Below are positions 8,376-31,627 of a DNA stretch of 32,556 nucleotides, piece after piece. Position numbers and translations under genes: made by a program. The notes under the pieces were generated by a model that had not been told where the DNA came from, did not search any database, and worked only from the letters and a program-made list of their open reading frames with translations. Positions within the stretch are counted from its first letter, which is position 1, and each line of letters opens with the position of its first letter. This DNA comes from a virus (taxonomy: Duplodnaviria > Caudoviricetes): the IMG/VR virus record IMGVR_UViG_3300020413_000039, positions 1 through 32,556 of that record; one strand, written 5' to 3'.

Positions 8376-8382
8376 TATTTAT
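8376..8382 (-). promoter_or_regulatory. T4-type (gp55) late promoter
   Basis: ATAAATA on the minus strand overlapping the upstream stop codon, with a second copy at 8362-8368; upstream of ATG 8357. Confidence 0.55.
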
Positions 8383-11300
8383 TTGTTTTCAAGAGTATTA
8401 ACTTTCGCAGTAAGTTCTTTCACTGCTTCAATTAAGACTGGAATTAATCTATCATAACGAACACCCAGTGTACCATCACCTCTCTTCTTGGAAACACCTG
8501 GTAATCCAAGTGCTTCGACCTCTTGAGCAATAATACCTGTGTCTAATCCACCTTCACCAAGTATACCAGCACCTGATTTCCAAGCAAAGGTATTACCAGA
8601 TAATGAATTAATCATGTCAAGTGCATTTTGGATTGGTGATATATTTTCTTTAAGAGTCATATCAGATGAACTAAATGCAATGATATCATCAGTTGCTTCT
8701 ACTTTACCAGTTACTTTTATTCCATCGTTAGTGGTTTCAAATTTCTTACTACTATTATAGTATATTTCTACATGATTATTTGTCGAATTAAAACATTTAA
8801 TAAAATTAGGATTACCACCACCAAAAGCTTCAAAAATCAAATTTCCAGCAGATTGAATTCGTAATTCACTACCAGAAACTTGACCTGAATTAATATGCCT
8901 TACATAGCTGTCTGTACCATCATGCGTAAGAAGTAGATCATTTCCAGTTCCCGCTGTAATGGCTTTATTATCCATTACATTTATATTAAGATTTGTACCA
9001 GTCAATTGACCTGTAGAATCATTGTAATTTAAATTGTCGGATGTAGCGGTTGTATTAGTTGCACTATTAAATAAGATTCTATTAGCAGTACCAACAACAT
9101 TTGTCGCTATATTTGATGAAGAAGAGTTTCCTGAAAAACTACCAGAGAAGGTTGTACAAGATAAAGTATTACTACTTGCATCGAATGTTAAAGTATTATC
9201 ATCTATTGCTGCAGTAATCATTGGATTACCTGAAGTTTCACTTGTAACAACAATTTTTTGTATACCTGATGCTGTTGATAATTGAGCACCAGTATTTGTT
9301 AAGTTAGCCCCATCTCCGTAGAAATTAACACCGTAAACATCTTGAAAACGTAAACTTGAAGTTCCTATATCAAAAGTATTATCAGCACTCGGTTTTATAT
9401 CTCCCCCTATTATATCTCCTCCTATATAAACGTCTTTAGCGATACCAACACCACCCTTAACAACCAAAGAACCTGTTGTGGTGCTTGACGAATTTAAATC
9501 ATTGTTGGCATTTAAAATACCTTGGACGCTAAGATTATCATTATATCTTACAGTACCATTAAATGTAACTGGACCATCAAACTGTGATAATATATTTTTA
9601 GAGGTACCACCTTCAACAAGGAGTCTTTCTTTAACAATAACTTCATCAGCAACTATGCTTAAGCGATTGGGATCCTCACCAGTGATAGTTGGTACAGGAA
9701 TATCAAACGTGGTTTGTTGTCCACTTGCTGATGATGTTTTAGTATTTCCAATATAGAAATCACCTTTATCATTCATACCAGTGTAAACAACGTTTCCACA
9801 AGATGTTTCTTGTGCCTGTGATAAGAACTCTTCTCTTTCACTTAATGTTCTATTCTGTAACTGTGGTAACGCAGTGGAGTAGTTACCTGGACCATAACCA
9901 ACATATTCAAATGTATGTCCCGAAGCTCTTAATATGGAGGGTCTTCTTAATTCAATTGGTAATGGTTTTATCTTTTTAAGATGTGAGTATCGCTTATGAG
10001 TATTATTTCGAGTACCTAAAACACCACGAATAACTTCGATTGCTTGTCCAGCACCTAAAGTACTCTTTGCAACTCGCATTACCTCATCATTTACCTGTAG
10101 ATAAGATCCAATAGGAAAACGAGATGTAATATTTTCACCAGTTGTATCACCATTAGGAAGCAAGATATTAATTGTTGTCTCCGACTTATCGATATCATCT
10201 GCCTCGTTTACAACAAGATAATCATGATCATAAACGGACATACCTCTTACACCAACATTTTCATCTCCTACACCTGATGCAGCGTTATGAGCAGATAATC
10301 CATGTTTTAAAATATAAACTGGACTTGTAACATCGCTTGGTGATGTTGCAGATATAGTTTCTTCTAATTGACCAGTTGTAGTGTTAACTGTGCTAGAAAG
10401 TGTATTGACAATAAAATCACCTAAATTTTCATTAGACGCATTAAGAAGTCTAAAACTGTTTCCAACCATTAAACTGGTTGCTGAGTTAGAAGTAATAGTT
10501 ACAATCCCTGCAACAGAGTCATATATTTTAGAACCACTTTTGATACTTGACCAAGCACCCATATCAACAACTTGTTGACCATTTAATATTAAGTCACTTG
10601 CTTCCTTGTTAATAGAAATTGCATCTTTAGAAGTAATAGTGTTTACAGTATGATAAGAATCTGTTCCAGTTGAAATACCAGTGATTTGTACATAGTTTCC
10701 TGTCGCAGATGTTATACCAGCACTTGAAGTAACAACAAATGCACTTGCATTTCCACCAATACCACCACTTACTTCATCTGAACTATCAAAATATAATTGC
10801 TCCCCATTTCCATATGCTGAACCACCAGCAGTCATTGTAGCAGCAATGGCAACACCATTTTGAACTGTAACATCTGCAGTAGCACCATCCCAGTTACTAT
10901 TAGTTGGAGAAGATGTATCATTCAATAATTTAACATTATGATGTGTTTTTTGACCTGATGCAGGAAGATGACCTGATCCACCAGTTAATGATGAAAGATA
11001 TTTTATTGACCCAAAACCATGTTCCTTATCAAATGTAAGTGTTGCAACAGTACCAGCACCATTTAATGATACGGATGAAATTGTATTGCTAACATCAAAT
11101 CCACTTAAGAAATTATTTGTAGTTTCTCTTGTAATACTTTTCTTTAAATCATTCGTTACAACAGAACCTATAGGGAAATTTTTGGCAAATGAATTTGCTT
11201 CAGGTGGATTATCGGTAACATTGTCACGATCATATTCTGGATATAAGTTAACAATATTCTGATTAAACTTATCCTCAGAGAACTCATTTGATGGGTCAAC

Positions 11301-14255
11301 CATCTTATTATTTGAGTTTAATACAAATAAGTGATAGATACCATCCTGTACATTTTCAATATATGGTGTTATAACTGTTGATCTATAAACAAAAAAGTTT
11401 TCTTGGTTATTATTTCTATCAACTCTAGGTAGTTGATTATCTCTTACATTAGTTGTATTAATGAAAGTTCCAAGTGTATGTGCTACACCCTCAACATCAA
11501 TGTTTGAATATCTGAATTCTTTACTATTATCCCTATCAGTTACAATAAATGTACCGTTAAATCCTTTATCATCTATTCCATTTTGATTTTGAGAACATTT
11601 GATGTTTCTAATAATAACTTGTTCACCAACATTTAAATTATGAGGTTTATCTGTTCTAATAACTGCTTTTGCAGGAGGACCACTCACAAGTACAGCATTT
11701 GATATGAATCTAGTATTACGTTCAAAATCAAAATTATTAGAAGTAATCTGTGTTTTTGTAAAGTCAGTATTTGAAGATACGTTTGTAGAACTTGAATCCT
11801 GTAGTACGAATCCATCACTCGGATCTTTACCATTTCTTAATTCTTTAGGAACAACATAACGTATTTTGTATGTCTTATCATCAAGACTACGATTATCCTC
11901 GTTTCTTAGAATGTAACTTATATCTGTATCAGCAGCATTTGCATATATTGATGAACCATTATGAATTGTATTTCCTGATGCTAATGTATGAATAAACCAA
12001 CTAGCTCCATCATATTGAATTGGATGTCCAGCATCGTTTGGTTTTTTATCTGATACTCTACTAATAATATTAAATTCACCTAGATTAGATACTGAATCAA
12101 TAAACACACCATTTTGTGCGTTAGTGAATGAAGATGCTAATTTAATTTCATCTGCTGCTAACTCTGATGCAACTGTAGTTGTAATTGCATAGTAAACTCT
12201 ATGTGGATCAATATTTTCTGGTAGATTTCCTGAGTCAGATATAAGTCTTACAGTTTCTCCAGTTTCTAAATTATGATTTTGTCTAAGTTTGTAGAAAGAT
12301 TTTTTTGAAGAGGTGGGAGAACTGTGAATACCTTTATATTTTTTCTCCGATGTATCTGTCGAACTAGATGTAGCTCCAGATGCACCATTTGCCATAACAA
12401 TGGTTGCTTCAAAAGTTGAAGCACCCTTATCAATGTATAATTTTTCATTTACCTTCGCACCGATACGATATCCTTGAGCAAAATGTGATGGTGGTAAAGT
12501 TTCATCAGCATATCCAAGCAAGTGAGCTTTAGTTGATGTTGTTTCAGAGACATCAAGTTGAAGATATTCAATATTTTGATTTTCAGTTGTAACTGAACGT
12601 GGAGTGATAATTGATGTGGCAAATCCTTTATCATCCTTTGCAAATGCTTGTTTCTTAAATCCTTCAGCAGCAAGAGCAAATGTACCAAAGTTAGAGTTAG
12701 AGTTTGTTACGGATGCGTCAGCACCATTAATCATATTAAAATGACTATGGAAACCAATCGCAAAAACAGATACTATCTGGACAACAGAATCATTAGATAC
12801 TTTGATATGAGTTGTGCGGAAACCTTTTCTATAGTTTGCTTCTTGATCTAAATGATATACTGTGTTTGGATTTGTTGATGATGATTCAGATGAAAGTAAT
12901 TCACCAGATTGTTTTGAGAATACAATTCCATTGTATCTGCGATTTGTCTTATCATATTTTACGAATGCTCTATCATCTTTTTGTAGGGATACAGCAGTAA
13001 ACTGTGCCACAACCATTGATTTAAATCCCGTTGCCTTCTTACCATCAGCATGCATACCTTGCATACCATATACTGAACGCATTGATATGTTAAAGATATA
13101 TGGAGATGCACCTGATACTGTATCAGTCTCAACTAATACCTGTGCGTTTGCAGAACTTAATCCACCTATTTCACCAGCAGGTAAATTACCTCTAACGAAT
13201 GGTAAAAGATAAGTAAATTTATTTTCGTTTACTACGGTTGAAACCTTTGTTGATATATTATAATCAGCAACATTAACTCCTCTAACTTTAATAGGAGTGC
13301 CACCTGTTAAATTATGAGGTAAAGCAGTTGTTACAGTAACAACCTGACCTGGTGTTGCTCCATCACCTGATTCAATAGTTGTAACATTAAGAGGATCTGT
13401 TGCAAATGCACCAACAATCTCAAATTCAGGTCTTTGTGGTGCAAAACCTTTTGGTGCAGAAGGATATTTTTGAGTAATCTCTCTATTAGCAGATGCCTTA
13501 TTGTAAGCATTTGATAGTTTACTATAGTAAATATCTAAATCTGTAAGATCACTAAATTGAGATAATTTAGTAATACCATCTGCATATTCAAAACAAGTTA
13601 ACTTATGATGTGAGAAGGTTGGTATTGATTTATTTGATGTGTTAAAATTAACAGGGTCTGTATATACTGTTTCTAATTCATTTCCATCAAAAATTGTAAA
13701 CTGCCAGAAGTAACAAGCACCTGTTATACGAAATATTGCACTTTGCTTAACATTAGTGTCTGTTGGGTTTGGAACATATTTTGGTCTTATTTTTGTTTTT
13801 CTTAAATCCAATCCAACAATCGATGTACCTCTAGGTACAACAACACCACCATTTACACTATTAAACTTGTAAAGTATATTATCTTCTTGTGTTAAATCAA
13901 AATTAGAATCTAATGTAAGTGATAAAGTATTGATTGCTCCTGTTACATCACCACCTGGACTTACTGCTTTTGCCTGTCCTGACTCTGATTTAATACCAAA
14001 ACCTGGTCTATTATCTATTAGATGTTCGCCAGGAAATAAAAGTATAGTTGTTCTCTCTATGAAGTCATTATCATTTCCTTTTAAGTATGAGAATCTAGCA
14101 GCTTCAACTAAAGCTCTCTGTATCGTTTTGAAAGGTTTGGTTAAGGAGTTTCCTTGATTTTCAATTCCATCGGTTGAATCAAGATCATTTGGATTCACAT
14201 AAAGTATACGTCCTTCTGCGTTCTTTATGAAATTCTCTAACTTATTAAGAGGCAT
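8379..14255 (-). CDS. Large tail fibre/tailspike-like structural protein with C-terminal intramolecular chaperone (peptidase S74)
   Basis: N-terminal ILYVNP...GNSLTKPFKTIQRAL followed by a beta-helix-like region. C-terminal SSDMTLKENI...GIIAQEVE...VRYDRLIPVLIEAVKEL coiled coil is the S74 signature. Confidence 0.85.
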   Translation of the reverse strand: MPLNKLENFIKNAEGRILYVNPNDLDSTDGIENQGNSLTKPFKTIQRALVEAARFSYLKGNDNDFIERTTILLFPGEHLIDNRPGFGIKSESGQAKAVSPGGDVTGAINTLSLTLDSNFDLTQEDNILYKFNSVNGGVVVPRGTSIVGLDLRKTKIRPKYVPNPTDTNVKQSAIFRITGACYFWQFTIFDGNELETVYTDPVNFNTSNKSIPTFSHHKLTCFEYADGITKLSQFSDLTDLDIYYSKLSNAYNKASANREITQKYPSAPKGFAPQRPEFEIVGAFATDPLNVTTIESGDGATPGQVVTVTTALPHNLTGGTPIKVRGVNVADYNISTKVSTVVNENKFTYLLPFVRGNLPAGEIGGLSSANAQVLVETDTVSGASPYIFNISMRSVYGMQGMHADGKKATGFKSMVVAQFTAVSLQKDDRAFVKYDKTNRRYNGIVFSKQSGELLSSESSSTNPNTVYHLDQEANYRKGFRTTHIKVSNDSVVQIVSVFAIGFHSHFNMINGADASVTNSNSNFGTFALAAEGFKKQAFAKDDKGFATSIITPRSVTTENQNIEYLQLDVSETTSTKAHLLGYADETLPPSHFAQGYRIGAKVNEKLYIDKGASTFEATIVMANGASGATSSSTDTSEKKYKGIHSSPTSSKKSFYKLRQNHNLETGETVRLISDSGNLPENIDPHRVYYAITTTVASELAADEIKLASSFTNAQNGVFIDSVSNLGEFNIISRVSDKKPNDAGHPIQYDGASWFIHTLASGNTIHNGSSIYANAADTDISYILRNEDNRSLDDKTYKIRYVVPKELRNGKDPSDGFVLQDSSSTNVSSNTDFTKTQITSNNFDFERNTRFISNAVLVSGPPAKAVIRTDKPHNLNVGEQVIIRNIKCSQNQNGIDDKGFNGTFIVTDRDNSKEFRYSNIDVEGVAHTLGTFINTTNVRDNQLPRVDRNNNQENFFVYRSTVITPYIENVQDGIYHLFVLNSNNKMVDPSNEFSEDKFNQNIVNLYPEYDRDNVTDNPPEANSFAKNFPIGSVVTNDLKKSITRETTNNFLSGFDVSNTISSVSLNGAGTVATLTFDKEHGFGSIKYLSSLTGGSGHLPASGQKTHHNVKLLNDTSSPTNSNWDGATADVTVQNGVAIAATMTAGGSAYGNGEQLYFDSSDEVSGGIGGNASAFVVTSSAGITSATGNYVQITGISTGTDSYHTVNTITSKDAISINKEASDLILNGQQVVDMGAWSSIKSGSKIYDSVAGIVTITSNSATSLMVGNSFRLLNASNENLGDFIVNTLSSTVNTTTGQLEETISATSPSDVTSPVYILKHGLSAHNAASGVGDENVGVRGMSVYDHDYLVVNEADDIDKSETTINILLPNGDTTGENITSRFPIGSYLQVNDEVMRVAKSTLGAGQAIEVIRGVLGTRNNTHKRYSHLKKIKPLPIELRRPSILRASGHTFEYVGYGPGNYSTALPQLQNRTLSEREEFLSQAQETSCGNVVYTGMNDKGDFYIGNTKTSSASGQQTTFDIPVPTITGEDPNRLSIVADEVIVKERLLVEGGTSKNILSQFDGPVTFNGTVRYNDNLSVQGILNANNDLNSSSTTTGSLVVKGGVGIAKDVYIGGDIIGGDIKPSADNTFDIGTSSLRFQDVYGVNFYGDGANLTNTGAQLSTASGIQKIVVTSETSGNPMITAAIDDNTLTFDASSNTLSCTTFSGSFSGNSSSSNIATNVVGTANRILFNSATNTTATSDNLNYNDSTGQLTGTNLNINVMDNKAITAGTGNDLLLTHDGTDSYVRHINSGQVSGSELRIQSAGNLIFEAFGGGNPNFIKCFNSTNNHVEIYYNSSKKFETTNDGIKVTGKVEATDDIIAFSSSDMTLKENISPIQNALDMINSLSGNTFAWKSGAGILGEGGLDTGIIAQEVEALGLPGVSKKRGDGTLGVRYDRLIPVLIEAVKELTAKVNTLENK

Positions 14256-15057: not shown

Positions 15058-15064
15058 TATTTAT
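15058..15064 (-). promoter_or_regulatory. T4-type late promoter
   Basis: ATAAATA on the minus strand at the end of the upstream gene, 13 nt before ATG 15044. The AT-rich context lowers specificity. Confidence 0.45.
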
Positions 15065-18000
15065 TAGGAAAAGACGATCACACTACAATAAGGTTGTTCT
15101 GCTTTCTGACTAGAGTTTTCAGTTTTGTAGCATATAAATCTTACATGGTTTCTATCACCACTATGGATAAAGGGATGAGTGTGTGCATATTGACCTGATA
15201 CATTATACACTGTTCCTGTAATCGCAAAAGAAACTGCTTGATAATCTGTTACATTACCAGCACTATCCGTAAGTTGATTTGTATAATTAACTTGATAATC
15301 TCCAGTACCATGATAAGTATATGAACTTACATTATGATTACTATAGTTGGTCATAGTTCCATTGCTCGCTCCAGCAAAGTGAGCCCAAACTTTTGCTACA
15401 GATCTATTAATAATATTACCCCTAACACTTAAATCGCCACCAGTTTGAGGGTAATCATATATGTCTAATCTATTATTAGCTCCATTTTGTTGAATTCTTA
15501 TATCAAAATCGTCAGTTGCAGAATTTTTAAAATCAATAAATGCATCACCAGTATATCTTGTAATTTCTATACAACCATCAGAAGCAACCAACTCAACTTT
15601 ACCAGTAGAGTGACTCGCTAGAAGAGTGCCTCCATCCCAAGTTAAGTTTGATTCACCCTGTAAAGTATTTGCAGTTCCAGTCGCAGTTATAACGTGGTTA
15701 TCAACATTACTGTTTATTGTTACACTTCCGCTGTTTACAGTTTCCCAAGAAACAGAACTACCTTTACCATTACTTGTTAAAACTTGACCTGTAGATCCAT
15801 ATTTTTGTGCATCAGTTCTAGTATTGGCCACATCTCCATTTCCAATATAAGCACCAGCTAATATTCCAATTTCTCCTGCCTTTCCAATACGCAATCTTTC
15901 TACTACTCTTCCTTGTGTATTGCTTGGATTGGAAGCACTATAATAACCATTTCCACCTGTTTGGAAAGTAATTGCAGAATAATCATCACTACTTGGACTT
16001 ATTGCTCCACCACTAGTATATCCATTGGCATAATCCATTTGGATACGAGCATCAAAATCAACCTGATCTCCATTACCAGAAGCCAATTGTGATGTAAAAT
16101 CAACATATGGACCACCAACGGGACTTACATTTCTACGCCTCATTAATTCTAATCCACCGTCCGCACGTACAACTGTTCTATTATAAGGAATACCATAAGT
16201 ATCAGTCTTTGTCTGAGCCATAATATTTCCATCGCCATAAGTGCTGTTATCACTTGAAGATGGTTTAAGTATTAACTGAGGTTGAGTCGTTGATTTATGA
16301 AATTCTAGTCCATCTGCACCAGCAAGAGTGCTACCACCATCATTAAACTGAACTTGCTTATCACTTCCAGCAACTCCTCCACCACTGCCCGATTCACCTT
16401 TTTGTCCTTCTTCCCCTTTATCACCTTTCGTGGATGATCCTGGTTCACCTTTTGTAGCTTGCCCTGGTTCTCCTTTATCAGACGTTCCTTCTTCACCTTT
16501 TTGTCCCTTGTCACCCTTGGTTGAATTGTCAACACCATCTTGTCCCTTTTCACCTTTATCACCTTTTGTGGATGATCCTGGTTCTCCCTTCACTGCTGCT
16601 CCCGCTTCTCCTTTGTCGCCAGTTCCCTTTTCACCTTTATCACCTTTATCACCTTTATCACCTTCACCTAGTTCACCTTTTGAACCCTTCTCTCCAATTT
16701 CTCCTTTTTGTCCTTCCACGGTTGAATCTGCACCTTTATCCCCCTTATCTCCTTTCTCACCTTGATCACCCTTTAAACCCAAATCTCCATCATTACCTTT
16801 CTCACCCACCTCACCTTTATCACCTTTCTCACCCACCTCACCTTTATCTCCTTGTACACCTAAATCTCCATCATTACCTTTATCACCTTTATCCCCCTTA
16901 TCTCCCTTAATACCTTTTTCTCCAACTTCGCCTTTCTCACCTTTTAGTCCTTCAATACCTTTTTCCCCAATTTCACCTTTATCTCCTTTAATTCCCTTCT
17001 CTCCCTTATCACCAGTTCTTGAGAAATTTAATACACATAGTTCTTGGTTTGAGGGAATGTTACCAAATCCATTTTGAACTCCTATGGTCACATAACCAGT
17101 AGAATTTGTAGCAGAAGTAATTTCAAATATTGCAAGAGTATTATCTGAGTTATCATTTGAAGTAACATACAGATAACCAGCTACAGCACTATTTGAATCA
17201 TCCCATGCCAACAGTTGATCTAATACATTGACAGAATTAATTTCTAAGACATCAATATATAATTGATTTACATTACTCACACTTGTATTGTTAAATCGAA
17301 ATATTCCTTGTCCAGGATCTCCATTTATAATAACAGTTGAAAATCTATATCTTAATCCTGCCTTTGCTCCTTGATCACCTACAATACCTTTTTCACCCTC
17401 ATTACCCTTATCTCCTTCAACTCCTTTCTCTCCAAATCCTTTTTCCCCAACTTCACCTTTATCACCCTTATCACCTTTTTCTCCTTTATCACCTTTTTCT
17501 CCTACCTCACCTTTCTGCCCTTCAATACCTTTTTCACCTTTATTACCCTGTGCTTCAACATCACCTTTTTCTCCCTTATCACCCTCAGGTCCTTGTCCAC
17601 CAGCATTTGCCATGACCCATTGTGAAGAATCAGCATCATCATAGCGTACAAATAAATCACCTGTATCACTTTCCCACCACAATTCTCCATTATTTGGATT
17701 AGTTGGAGGTTCATTACCAACTGTAACAGGTATCACAGTTACAGTCGCAGCAATACCAGGATGACCTGAAGGACTTTGTGCAGATACATTTGCAGTTACT
17801 GCTGCACCTACAAAATTCAATTGAGTGATACTACTTGCAACACTAACTTGTACCCCTTCGTCAAATATAGTGATTGCACCAGGTATCAGTCCACCACCTA
17901 CAGGAACCCAAAATCTTTGACCTGGATATCCTGGTATAGCGATCAATTGATATTGACCGCCTGGAGGAGGAGATGGTCCTGCAAGAGGATCAGATAAATT

Positions 18001-18096
18001 TGGTTCTGCTTGTTCTAGATTAAGATAACTATACCGATCATCTTTAAGTTGATCTTGAGGTGTTCTCTTAACTCTACCGCTTAAATATTTTACCAT
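15064..18096 (-). CDS. Collagen-like tail fibre protein
   Basis: Two long Gly-X-Y tracts (GEK/GDK-dominated), GELWWESDTGDLFVRYDD module, QVQFNDGG motif and a C-terminal AKVWAHF...NVSS...GTGDYQVNYT tip domain. Confidence 0.88.
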   Translation of the reverse strand: MVKYLSGRVKRTPQDQLKDDRYSYLNLEQAEPNLSDPLAGPSPPPGGQYQLIAIPGYPGQRFWVPVGGGLIPGAITIFDEGVQVSVASSITQLNFVGAAVTANVSAQSPSGHPGIAATVTVIPVTVGNEPPTNPNNGELWWESDTGDLFVRYDDADSSQWVMANAGGQGPEGDKGEKGDVEAQGNKGEKGIEGQKGEVGEKGDKGEKGDKGDKGEVGEKGFGEKGVEGDKGNEGEKGIVGDQGAKAGLRYRFSTVIINGDPGQGIFRFNNTSVSNVNQLYIDVLEINSVNVLDQLLAWDDSNSAVAGYLYVTSNDNSDNTLAIFEITSATNSTGYVTIGVQNGFGNIPSNQELCVLNFSRTGDKGEKGIKGDKGEIGEKGIEGLKGEKGEVGEKGIKGDKGDKGDKGNDGDLGVQGDKGEVGEKGDKGEVGEKGNDGDLGLKGDQGEKGDKGDKGADSTVEGQKGEIGEKGSKGELGEGDKGDKGDKGEKGTGDKGEAGAAVKGEPGSSTKGDKGEKGQDGVDNSTKGDKGQKGEEGTSDKGEPGQATKGEPGSSTKGDKGEEGQKGESGSGGGVAGSDKQVQFNDGGSTLAGADGLEFHKSTTQPQLILKPSSSDNSTYGDGNIMAQTKTDTYGIPYNRTVVRADGGLELMRRRNVSPVGGPYVDFTSQLASGNGDQVDFDARIQMDYANGYTSGGAISPSSDDYSAITFQTGGNGYYSASNPSNTQGRVVERLRIGKAGEIGILAGAYIGNGDVANTRTDAQKYGSTGQVLTSNGKGSSVSWETVNSGSVTINSNVDNHVITATGTANTLQGESNLTWDGGTLLASHSTGKVELVASDGCIEITRYTGDAFIDFKNSATDDFDIRIQQNGANNRLDIYDYPQTGGDLSVRGNIINRSVAKVWAHFAGASNGTMTNYSNHNVSSYTYHGTGDYQVNYTNQLTDSAGNVTDYQAVSFAITGTVYNVSGQYAHTHPFIHSGDRNHVRFICYKTENSSQKAEQPYCSVIVFS
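16385..17600 (-). repeat. Collagen (Gly-X-Y)n coding repeats, two tracts (about 17358-17600 and 16385-17013)
   Basis: 9-nt periodic TCACCTTT(A/C/T)-like units on the plus strand; KGEPGSSTKGDKG occurs twice. Boundaries are approximate. Confidence 0.9.
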
Positions 18097-29026: not shown

Positions 29027-30703
29027 TCAACTAACCCCCGTTAAAGCTGTTGCATACATTGTATGTGGATTATTATTATCAAATTCTATTGCGGGCAAGG
29101 TGACTGACTTACCCGAAGGATCTGATTGTGCTCCAGAAGATTGATTATTTTTATTTCCTGTGTTCATATTTACTACTTGAGGTGCATCTTCATCAAAGTT
29201 ACTGATTTGATTTGCAACTTCCGTATTATTATTTTTTGTAGGTGTGATAGAATCATTAGAACTTGTAAAATCTTCGTCTGTTAAAGTATCTCCTACTTTT
29301 TTATTAAATAATTTTATATCATTTACACCAAATGCTTTCATTAACGTTTTTGACAATCTCTTAAATGCTTCTTCACCTAAAATACCACCAACTATTGCAC
29401 CAACAACTGGTATTGGTATAAGTGCCTGTCCTAACGCAGCACCTGCAAGAAACCCTGCAGTAGCAGCTGCTGCTGAAACTAAACCACCGTCTTCACTAGT
29501 AAGTTCAGTAAAAAAAGTAATAAGTGGTCCAAAAATATTAAGTAATTTTGAAAATAATTTCCCGACCCCCAAATTCTTCAAACCTTTCAGTTTTGATAAA
29601 AACCCTGATTTTTTTGTAATTTCTTTTCCTGTGCCTGTTGTGACTTTGGATGATATATCTTTGGAGAATTTTTTTGTCAATTTCTCAGTTGCTTTAACTC
29701 CTACATCATCTGCAGAAGAAGATAATACTGCTGTTCCCCCTGCTCCTGCACCAATTGTTGCTGGTACTTTCCCTTTTGAGAATACCTTTTTAATATTTTT
29801 TGTTAAATTTGGTAGAAATTTTCTGGTTGGTGCTGGTTTTAAAGCTGGGGTAGCAATTCGTGCTCCTGTTGCAACCTTTGCTGCTGTTGTTACTTTATTA
29901 AATCCAGGTATAAATTTTCCAAGTTTTATTCCAACAACTGTTGCTACTATTTGTCCAATTATACTTTTTAATCCTGCTCCTCCAAAGAATCCTAAACCAA
30001 GACCTGCAGCTTTCTTTACAAGACCTGCAAGTAGTGCTTGAACACCTTTCAATCCTACTCTCAACATACCACCAAATGCCACTCTTGCAACATTTCCTGC
30101 AAACACACCTAATATACCTATAACTTTTTTTATTCCAACTGAAATTGCAGTAAACGATCCTACAATTACTGTTAATCCAACTATGAATTTTGTTTTTAAT
30201 CTGTTTATTTTATCAACATTTCCCTCAGACATCGCCTGAAGTAAATCAATTCCCGTAATTGTTAACCATCCACCAGCAAGTGTAAATAAGAAATTAGTTA
30301 ACCTACCTAAAATACCCTGTGTTTTTACACCAATCCGTTGAACAGGTTGAGTTAATGATGATTGTATCTTATTTTCTAACGCACTTTCCTTTCCTTCTCT
30401 TAACCCTTGCTCTGCTAAAATTCTTTCACGGTTTTGATTTGCTGCTTCTCTCTGTCTCTCTAATTGTTCGTTTAATGCTAAATTCTCTTTTACTGCTTTT
30501 AGATTAAAATCTAGAACAGATACTTGTCTGGATATGTTTTGTAACTGTCCAGATACTGATGTTAATTGTAATGACTGTTGTTGAAGTAAGGAAGTAGTAA
30601 CTGGATCTGCCTTTGCTTGTCTAGGTGCACCAAGAAAACTAGAAGAAATATTTCTTCTAACTGCTCTTATTCCTCCTGATAGTGGTGATCCAAACTCATC
30701 CAT
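29027..30703 (-). CDS. Tape-measure-like protein A
   Basis: 558 aa with an N-terminal coiled coil and long Gly/Ala/Lys-rich hydrophobic helices (GAALGQALIPIPVVGAIVGGILG). Lies between gp26/gp51 and the hub. Confidence 0.58.
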   Translation of the reverse strand: MDEFGSPLSGGIRAVRRNISSSFLGAPRQAKADPVTTSLLQQQSLQLTSVSGQLQNISRQVSVLDFNLKAVKENLALNEQLERQREAANQNRERILAEQGLREGKESALENKIQSSLTQPVQRIGVKTQGILGRLTNFLFTLAGGWLTITGIDLLQAMSEGNVDKINRLKTKFIVGLTVIVGSFTAISVGIKKVIGILGVFAGNVARVAFGGMLRVGLKGVQALLAGLVKKAAGLGLGFFGGAGLKSIIGQIVATVVGIKLGKFIPGFNKVTTAAKVATGARIATPALKPAPTRKFLPNLTKNIKKVFSKGKVPATIGAGAGGTAVLSSSADDVGVKATEKLTKKFSKDISSKVTTGTGKEITKKSGFLSKLKGLKNLGVGKLFSKLLNIFGPLITFFTELTSEDGGLVSAAAATAGFLAGAALGQALIPIPVVGAIVGGILGEEAFKRLSKTLMKAFGVNDIKLFNKKVGDTLTDEDFTSSNDSITPTKNNNTEVANQISNFDEDAPQVVNMNTGNKNNQSSGAQSDPSGKSVTLPAIEFDNNNPHTMYATALTGVS

Positions 30704-30875
30704 TACGTTCTTGTTGTGCTTTTAAATTTTCCTCTTCAATATATTGTTGGAGAAGTGAAACATAAATTTCTCTCTCCCACGGAATCATATTCTCAAGTTC
30801 AGTTAAACTATATTTATGATGCTGCATCAAGGCAAAATTCAATTTATAGTATGACACTAAATCCTCGTGTGCCAT
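30696..30875 (-). CDS. gp51: gp51-like baseplate hub assembly protein, short form (59 aa; absent from the ORF track; probably the C-terminal part of a frameshift fusion)
   Basis: Manual translation MAHEDLVSYYKLNFALMQHHKYSLTELENMIPWEREIYVSLLQQYIEEENLKAQQERNG*. It exactly fills the gap between gp26 and the next gene. Confidence 0.88.
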   Translation of the reverse strand: MAHEDLVSYYKLNFALMQHHKYSLTELENMIPWEREIYVSLLQQYIEEENLKAQQERNG

Positions 30876-30904
30876 ACTTATCCGAAAAAACTCTGCAGCC
30901 CCTC
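30848..30904 (-). other. Candidate -1 programmed ribosomal frameshift signal (gp26 to gp51)
   Basis: mRNA: GAGGGG, 8 nt, U UUU UUC (30890-30884), GGAUA, then hairpin AGUAUGGCAC / 11-nt loop / GUGUCAUACU. The -1 frame is open into gp51. Confidence 0.7.
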
Positions 30905-31594
30905 TATTGTAATCTCACTCTCAACCTTTGTATTTGGATTCATGACCTTAACTGTATGAGAAAGTTTTGGCATAGTATCGAAAAATTTCTCAATATCTTT
31001 AAATTGAGATGAATTCATTTGCTCTAAAAAGTCAACTAATTCTTTCTTTGTACAATCTTCCTGAGTCCAAGATTCTTCCTCTGAATAAACTTGATCAATA
31101 CACGATGCAATAAGTTCAAAAGTATCATCTACTTTAATATCACCTGCATCAAAATTAGATTTAATAAACTCATTTAGAGATGGATATCTCATTTTTAATG
31201 TAAAAGTGTCGTCTAATTTGATATCTGATTTGTGGTCTTTTGATTTTTGAACTTTAATAGAATCAATATTAATTGACATTGGTACTTGTGTTTTCCCATC
31301 ATCAGGGCAAGTAACCATCACTTCAATCTGTTCTCCAACAGATTTACCACGTACATTTAAAAACAAATATTCAATGTCAAAGGTAGATAGTTTTTCAACT
31401 TTTATCCCTTTAGTCAAAATACAAGATACTAAAATACTTTTTACAGCATTCGCTATTTGTTTTTGATCTTGAGACTCTAAGGCAATAATTAAAATCTTCT
31501 CCTCTTTTACAAGAAATGGTCTGTATTTGATCTTTCTATTTGATGAGGGAAGAACCAACTCATAAGTTGGTGTTGCGATTGTTGGTAAAGGCAT
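30878..31594 (-). CDS. gp26: Baseplate hub assembly protein gp26
   Basis: MPLPTIATPTYEL.LPS...IKYRPFLVKEEKIL, FDIEYLFLNVRGKSVGE, MRYPSL, FFDTMPKL and C-terminal EGLQSFFG. Confidence 0.92.
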   Translation of the reverse strand: MPLPTIATPTYELVLPSSNRKIKYRPFLVKEEKILIIALESQDQKQIANAVKSILVSCILTKGIKVEKLSTFDIEYLFLNVRGKSVGEQIEVMVTCPDDGKTQVPMSINIDSIKVQKSKDHKSDIKLDDTFTLKMRYPSLNEFIKSNFDAGDIKVDDTFELIASCIDQVYSEEESWTQEDCTKKELVDFLEQMNSSQFKDIEKFFDTMPKLSHTVKVMNPNTKVESEITIEGLQSFFG

Positions 31595-31619: not shown

Positions 31620-31627
31620 TATTTATA
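31620..31627 (-). promoter_or_regulatory. T4 late promoter (perfect consensus)
   Basis: TATAAATA on the minus strand, 25 nt upstream of the gp26 ATG. Confidence 0.85.

Follow-up and report, generated by a model that had tools for sequence, protein, structure and literature searches.

A probable −1 ribosomal frameshift joins gp26 to the short "gp51" reading frame in a T4-like phage, likely a marine cyanophage

The window analysed here, a 32,556-nucleotide (nt) stretch of DNA from a T4-like phage (IMG/VR record IMGVR_UViG_3300020413_000039), carries on its minus strand a gp26-like open reading frame (ORF) followed by a 59-codon "gp51" ORF. We propose that the two are likely one tail assembly chaperone (TAC) gene, expressed through a programmed −1 ribosomal frameshift that would give a major chaperone of 238 amino acids (aa) and a minor one of 299 aa. 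On the comparative evidence set out below, we put the probability of this reading at about 90%.

In the proposed mechanism, the majority of ribosomes would terminate at the gp26 stop codon TAA and release the short form, and a minority would slip one base back on the heptamer U UUU UUC, presumably by tandem slippage of two tRNA-Phe, and read on to the long form, the equivalent of T4 gp51. A hairpin and a Shine–Dalgarno (SD)-like element may raise the shift rate in the clade of this phage. If the roles known for lambda gpG/gpGT carry over, the part common to both forms would coat the tape measure protein, the added domain would recruit the tail tube protein, and the shift rate would set the ratio of the short to the long form.

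The slip site, the −1 frame and T4 gp51

The gp26-like ORF (238 aa, positions 31594–30878; this and the following features of the locus are on the minus strand), which would encode the short, G-like chaperone form (TAC-N), ends with ATA GAG GGG CTG CAG AGT TTT TTC GGA TAA, and GT ATG follows. The slippery heptamer T TTT TTC at positions 30890–30884, the predicted shift site, covers the Phe236-Phe237 codons in the phase that an earlier, sequence-only reading had assigned to it. From position 30890 the −1 frame runs on for 64 codons until it meets the stop at 30696, and it holds the 59-aa ORF (30875–30696), the predicted C-terminal, T-like domain of the long form; 237 gp26 residues, 3 further residues and these 59 make up the 299 aa expected for the fusion. 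The gp26 stop codon (30880–30878) and the AUG of the short ORF (30875–30873) are 2 nt apart. The predicted long form would contain the −1 frame peptide ISMAHEDLVSYYK, and its tryptic peptide at the junction would end in FFR rather than FFG.

Inside the window the heptamer-plus-stop motif TTTTTTCNNNTRR occurs at chance level (1 match against 1.29 expected). Since the motif is at chance in the window alone and far above chance across relatives, the support for the shift is comparative.

The sample consisted of 267 IMG/VR loci from four scans (80, 80, 80 and 27, the first three each limited to the 80 best among 599, 580 and 591 confirmed stretches) and 19 cultured phages chosen among 60 listed of 688 records, giving 286 loci in total; T4 was read separately. 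Four loci that stop short of the junction (L039, L191, L208 and L248) were dropped. The remaining 282 loci correspond to 198 distinct 65-nt junctions, some scans having given copies of one phage.

An in-frame X XXY YYZ heptamer is present near the end of gp26 in 280 of the 282 loci, as T TTT TTC in 266, T TTT TTT in 7 and T TTT TTA in 7. All 280 heptamer-bearing loci have an open −1 frame (275 complete, with 57–70 codons, and 5 cut by a contig end), and so do the two others, Vibrio phages D532 and VAP7, so that the predicted position of "gp51" in a stop-free −1 frame held throughout; the +1 frame has a median length of 8 codons and reaches at least 45 codons in 1 locus. All ten cultured cyanophages have T TTT TTC and an open −1 frame. 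Among nine distant cultured phages, GAT TTT TTY with an open −1 frame was found in seven, namely Caulobacter Cr30, Pseudomonas pf16, Aeromonas phiAS5, Stenotrophomonas Mendera, Acinetobacter SH-Ab 15599 and Vibrio phi-Grn1 and nt-1.

It should be asked whether the protein alone could account for this pattern. In the first 98 loci, 96 genes end in Phe-Phe, coded TTT TTC in 93 and TTT TTT in 3, and T precedes the pair in all 96; the 96 Phe-Phe pairs located inside these genes, taken as a control, have TTT TTC in 3 cases, TTT TTT in 30 and a preceding T in 15. A second control, on 236 distinct proteins, gave the T run in 22 of 543 internal Phe-Phe or Phe-Leu pairs. The codon 5′ of the run takes seven forms (AGT, GAT, AAT, TCT, GCT, GTT and ACT), every one of them ending in T, and in 7 junctions Phe-Phe has changed to Phe-Leu with the T run intact. 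Because the run is rare at internal Phe-Phe and Phe-Leu pairs and survives the change to Phe-Leu, the heptamer is kept beyond protein constraint: in the sequences compared, it is the nucleotide pattern that is kept, rather than the dipeptide.

The first ORF belongs to the T4 gp26/gp51 family by profile match, and the long form does so by its colinearity with T4 gp51. The gp26 ORF matches PF12322 (T4_baseplate, E 1.6e-75) and spans positions 5–232 of the 282-position profile phrog_150; the 59-aa ORF matches phrog_634 (hub assembly catalyst, E 2.8e-28) and also positions 239–278 of phrog_150. A precomputed PF28602 label marks the short domain in fused database proteins, and our Pfam scan gave no PF28602 match. 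In BLASTP comparisons, gp26 is 25% identical to T4 gp26 (E 4e-10) and has no match to T4 gp51 (E 0.5), and the 59-aa ORF matches T4 gp51 residues 207–246 (E 4e-6). A fused profile of 31 rows, its first row a database protein in which the junction is read through, can be aligned across the junction with residues 13–244 of the 249 residues of T4 gp51 (probability 90.7, E 1.3e-6), and with T4 gp26 up to the Phe-Phe only (probability 97.8). The picture that the sequence-only reading gave of T4 gp51, as a chain of about 250 aa with a gp26-like part and a C-terminal segment resembling the 59-aa ORF, is borne out by this alignment.

A structure model was available for a fused relative, P0027 (predicted local distance difference test score, pLDDT, 78, and below 50 at the junction, residues 239–249). 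Its best three matches among 48,161 PDB chains were 3fgx (Z 7.7, root-mean-square deviation, rmsd, 3.9, 86 residues aligned), 2ob9, the HK97 TAC (Z 7.5, rmsd 4.2, 85 aligned), and 3klu (Z 7.4, rmsd 4.2, 86 aligned); they cover the N-terminal residues 1–95 of the model, and the next-best Z is 5.3. All three structures are termed tail assembly chaperones in a passage of PMC9603447. Because the top three matches belong to one family, we assign a TAC fold to the first ORF on the basis of this model, though the Z-scores are modest. An alignment search of PDB sequences gave no match up to E 5, and the 50 matches listed from a BFVD fold search were gp26/gp51-type "baseplate hub" and unnamed phage proteins, none of them named TAC.

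Overall, the heptamer, the open −1 frame, their conservation and the colinearity with T4 gp51 can be read directly from the sequences, and the comparative tests support the fusion and the G/GT-type interpretation put forward by the sequence-only reading. The strong conservation of the site is real, and the site is very probably functional.

Hairpins and the SD-like element

Folding reproduced the 10-bp stem proposed for this locus (30878–30848, arms 30878–30869 and 30857–30848, 11-nt loop). The hairpin begins 5 nt past the heptamer and has the AUG of the short ORF within its stem; we regard it as a candidate, clade-specific stimulator. Against dinucleotide shuffles, its z-score weakens from −2.85 with 34 nt folded to −1.53 with 64 nt and −1.08 with 94 nt. 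Across 85 distinct segments, the 41 nt after the heptamer have a mean folding energy of −11.9 kcal/mol, compared with −2.6, −3.4 and −4.0 kcal/mol in three control windows, and 67 of the 85 have z below −2 against synonymous shuffles.

In 79 aligned junctions, a set enriched in close relatives of the window, 85.1% of the cells of the hairpin are paired, compared with 24–50% in slid controls, and 44 cells show double-sided change (0 of 500 shuffles). The covariation rests mainly on the pair 30870/30856, which is U-A in 26 cases, A-U in 21 and G-C in 13, and in which a synonymous Ala position tracks a non-synonymous one. The 3′ hairpin of a dnaX/IS-type signal is thus, in these alignments, conserved as a structure in the clade of this phage, where the covariation looked for was found; beyond this clade it does not hold in general, and a hairpin is not required everywhere.

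The SD-like GAGGGG proposed as a second element is present at 30904–30899, 8 nt 5′ of the heptamer, in Glu-Gly codons, and is a candidate second stimulator. GAG codes this Glu in 130 of 211 distinct genes, compared with 1674 of the 5076 other Glu codons of these genes (33%), and in a smaller set in 56 of 65, against about one third elsewhere. In 81 genes it is coded GAA, and Glu-Gly is itself a protein motif; GAG is an enrichment and no rule. Of the combined SD, heptamer and hairpin signal, the heptamer is general, whereas whole clades keep it with a weak hairpin or without GAG.

In other clades the picture around the heptamer varies. In the P-HM1-like clade (L091, L181–L245) a different hairpin of 6 bp, GCCCUC/GAGGGC, likewise follows the heptamer after 5 nt. 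The Syn33/S-RIM2-like clade (L101–L180) has no 3′ hairpin, and a CUCCUUC-like tract 3′ of the stop codon offers a pairing partner for its SD-like GAGG/GAAG; the resulting stem, within the segment from 24 nt upstream to 20 nt downstream of the heptamer end, would have the heptamer in its loop. In 59 junctions this enclosing stem has a mean of −10.9 kcal/mol and z −1.86; 40 distinct sequences give a weak consensus (−0.93 kcal/mol), with double-sided change in 0 of 6 pairs. From these sequences we treat the enclosing stem as a lead only, not as established.

A speculative extension, which we consider rather improbable, is that cyanophages share the slip site and carry interchangeable RNA elements around it, namely the covarying hairpin, gating the AUG for a third, free T-domain protein, in the present clade, the 6-bp hairpin in P-HM1 and the enclosing stem in Syn33/S-RIM2, the variants tuning the short-to-long ratio.

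Points against the frameshift and rival explanations

Several observations weigh against the proposed frameshift, or against parts of it. The loci are related, and their counts are not independent events. Vibrio D532 (L084) and VAP7 (L088), 2 of the 282 loci, have an open −1 frame and no X XXY YYZ heptamer; a single-tRNA slip or a change to coupling is possible in them. The 3′ fold is weak (above −6 kcal/mol) in 59 of 191 distinct junctions. Stop–start overlaps (TGATG/TAATG) occur in six distant phages, Cr30, Mendera, phi-Grn1, nt-1, D532 and VAP7. A quick tree built from 126 proteins of reduced redundancy places the AUG of the short ORF mainly in one clade that includes the nearest relatives of the window (45 of 48 rows), with 11 changes, at least 6 of them forced by strong branches; the AUG is kept in this phage's clade, so that re-initiation could be an additional route to the short ORF. 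The fold Z-scores lie below 8, a range that, according to the tool, unrelated models can reach. Finally, the 558-aa ORF that follows is no more than a candidate tape measure protein. As a separate observation, the gp26 genes of D532 and VAP7 have CTT TTC and GTT TTT, respectively, near their ends, with a TAATG overlap.

If gp26 and the short ORF were two separate genes linked by translational coupling only, ribosomes would terminate at TAA and begin again at the AUG 2 nt further on, the distance from stop to start would set the frame, and the T run would merely encode Phe-Phe. The TAA GT ATG arrangement of the window, the overlaps in the six distant phages and the retention of the AUG in the clade all favour this, but start codons are far from general: ATG is found in −1 codons 2–12 of 107 of the 198 distinct junctions and any of ATG, GTG or TTG in 116, which leaves 82 without a common start codon, and the −1 frame of SH-Ab 15599 has no ATG anywhere. 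Moreover, in 8 loci (among them L264 and L268–L271) the gp26 stop lies eight codons beyond the heptamer, overlapping the −1 frame. Coupling also leaves unexplained the fixed TTT TTC after T, the change from Phe-Phe to Phe-Leu with the T run kept, and the fact that T4 gp51 is a single chain with both parts, and we consider it very unlikely. The annotation of the ORF varies as well: it is intact and unannotated in SH-Ab 15599 (L086), S-CAM4 (L093) and ACG-2014d (L098), and other public records set its start at differing codons.

Re-initiation at the AUG might also act in addition to the frameshift, with which it is compatible, and give a free 59-aa protein as a third product in this clade. The AUG lies 2 nt past the stop codon and is widely kept in the clade, and a ribosome at the stop would be expected to melt the hairpin that hides it. 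On the other hand, Leu codons stand in place of Met in other clades, and also in a few phages of this clade, so that Met may be no more than a tolerated hydrophobic residue, and the AUG belongs to the hairpin stem, which can itself fix it in place. The GAGGGG, at 23 nt, is too distant to serve the AUG, such a spacing being too long for initiation. A third product is accordingly conceivable, and we think it doubtful.

The long form could also arise in transcription, if RNA polymerase inserted an extra U while copying the T run. In favour of this, the signal is homopolymeric, a single additional T would give the same product, and some relatives have 7–8 T. However, the run is just 6 T here and is closed by C in 266 of the 280 loci, and the strict codon phasing and the hairpin at 5-nt spacing fit a ribosomal event. 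Bacterial transcript slippage is described on runs of 9 A or T in a section of a 2016 review (PMC5009743). Transcriptional slippage has in our view little chance of being the explanation. No indel at the T run is listed in the contigs of four sequencing runs, a weak negative, as no piece shown bridges the run, contigs drop rare variants and RNA cover is thin; for the same reasons these data say nothing on transcript slippage or expression.

An assembly error, a base lost in the contig from what is truly a single fused ORF, would be in line with the fused proteins of 279–302 aa in the database. The same two-frame layout is nevertheless present in 280 loci, finished genomes included, and the conservation of the stop codon refutes an error; nine of ten fused proteins examined are single-member clusters and one has two members from one contig, and their junctions fall at differing places, as with sequencing indels. 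An error of this kind is close to negligible as an explanation. We also rejected the fused database proteins as proof of a natural fusion, since they are near-singletons with scattered junctions and likely sequencing indels.

Neighbouring genes and known tail chaperones

Just upstream of gp26 lies a tail-tube-family ORF (PF23849, phrog_45). A sequence resembling a T4-type late promoter, TATAAATA, is found at 31627–31620 on the minus strand, 25 nt 5′ of the gp26 start. It is the single match in the window, against 4.9 expected by chance, and its position, not its count, is suggestive. A second sequence, CATAAATA, lies within the short ORF (30818–30811, minus strand), where it also encodes the conserved His-Lys-Tyr; the gene that follows might have its late promoter here. 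A scan of the sequence for sigma-70 promoters and terminators gave results at chance level.

The next gene is the 558-aa ORF (30703–29027, minus strand), which takes in the last 8 nt of the short ORF (30703–30696) and is a candidate, unproven tape-measure-like client. It matches no Pfam or PHROG family, and an Atlas search with it gave unnamed phage clusters only. It overlaps by 4 nt (29030–29027) with a following 468-aa ORF, which has weak local matches to tape measure PHROGs (E 4.8e-6, residues 254–312), and the tape-measure function may be split across the two ORFs. In the Cr30 record a named tape measure gene stands two genes on; D532 and SH-Ab 15599 have other neighbours. An Atlas search with gp26 without PF12322 gave an unnamed best match at 0.85 and was uninformative. 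Elsewhere, the window holds a 1010-aa ORF with collagen repeats (15064–18096, minus strand; PF01391, E 1.7e-26), probably a fibre, and a 1958-aa ORF at 8379–14255.

The closest annotated relatives are marine cyanophages and the best-matching sequencing runs are mostly marine metagenomes, from which we infer that this T4-like phage is likely a marine cyanophage.

Vladimirov, Gautam and Davidson (Virology 2022, 566:9–15) are said to have identified the genes that code for tail chaperones in T4-like phages; the T4 genes are reportedly 26 and 51, with the shift conserved in several T4-like groups. The sequence-only reading knew of no description of the arrangement. It is not undescribed: two later papers, in the passages available, cite Vladimirov et al. 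for exactly such an arrangement. The paper on PRFect (PMC10885494) describes, on the basis of that work, some T4-like phages with a short TAC gene and a separate fused long gene and no frameshift; the paper on Adele (PMC12846349) refers to it for T4-like phages whose TAC-N genes have poly-T −1 slip sites. As far as these passages go, our data indicate that the present locus fits that picture as a well-supported new example of a principle already proposed for T4-like phages. What the present analysis may add to the 2022 work is the extension to cyanophages, the details of the hairpin, of the SD-like element and of the lost AUG, and the set of 282 loci. Our literature search found no report or test of this shift in cyanophages, although the 2022 paper and its supplements, which lay outside the search, may list some.

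The short cyanophage and vibriophage "gp51" is described by Sullivan et al. (2010, PMC3037559), in the relevant passage, as being without the first ~200 residues of T4 gp51 and similar at the C-terminus; it is viewed there as a reduced gene, and that passage gives no frameshift reading. If the frameshift is real, the varied starts or omission of "gp51" in the records and its truncated look in 2010 would follow from its being the tail of a frameshift protein and not a small gene, and its annotation would be corrected across cultured and uncultured T4-like cyanophages. The lambda-type rule of a short and a long chaperone would then extend to an abundant marine phage group, and the locus would offer a compact cassette for testing −1 shifting in cyanobacteria. 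As the principle and the T4-like link are already in print, the gain lies in confirmation and detail.

In lambda, as the 2016 review puts it in the section concerned (PMC5009743), the tape measure protein is bound by the portion that both forms have in common and the major tail protein by the T domain, in a set ratio; the same section calls the G-T shift conserved "except T4". The gp26 and gp51 proteins of T4 are termed hub assembly chaperones in a passage of PMC3004832. T4 has gp26 (208 aa) and gp51 (249 aa) as two divergent genes, whereas the phage described here would have one gene with a shift: T4 gene 26, which ends GAG TTC TTT GAG TTA CTA TAA, lacks a slip site, and gene 51 stands apart from it. 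Taken together, the predicted system resembles lambda gpG/gpGT in its −1 shift near the end of the chaperone gene, in its short and long forms and in an N-terminal fold similar to that of the HK97 TAC (2ob9), and it differs from lambda-type systems in its site, U UUU UUC, and in a short form of 238 aa that carries extra domains, compared with about 100 aa in the matched structures.

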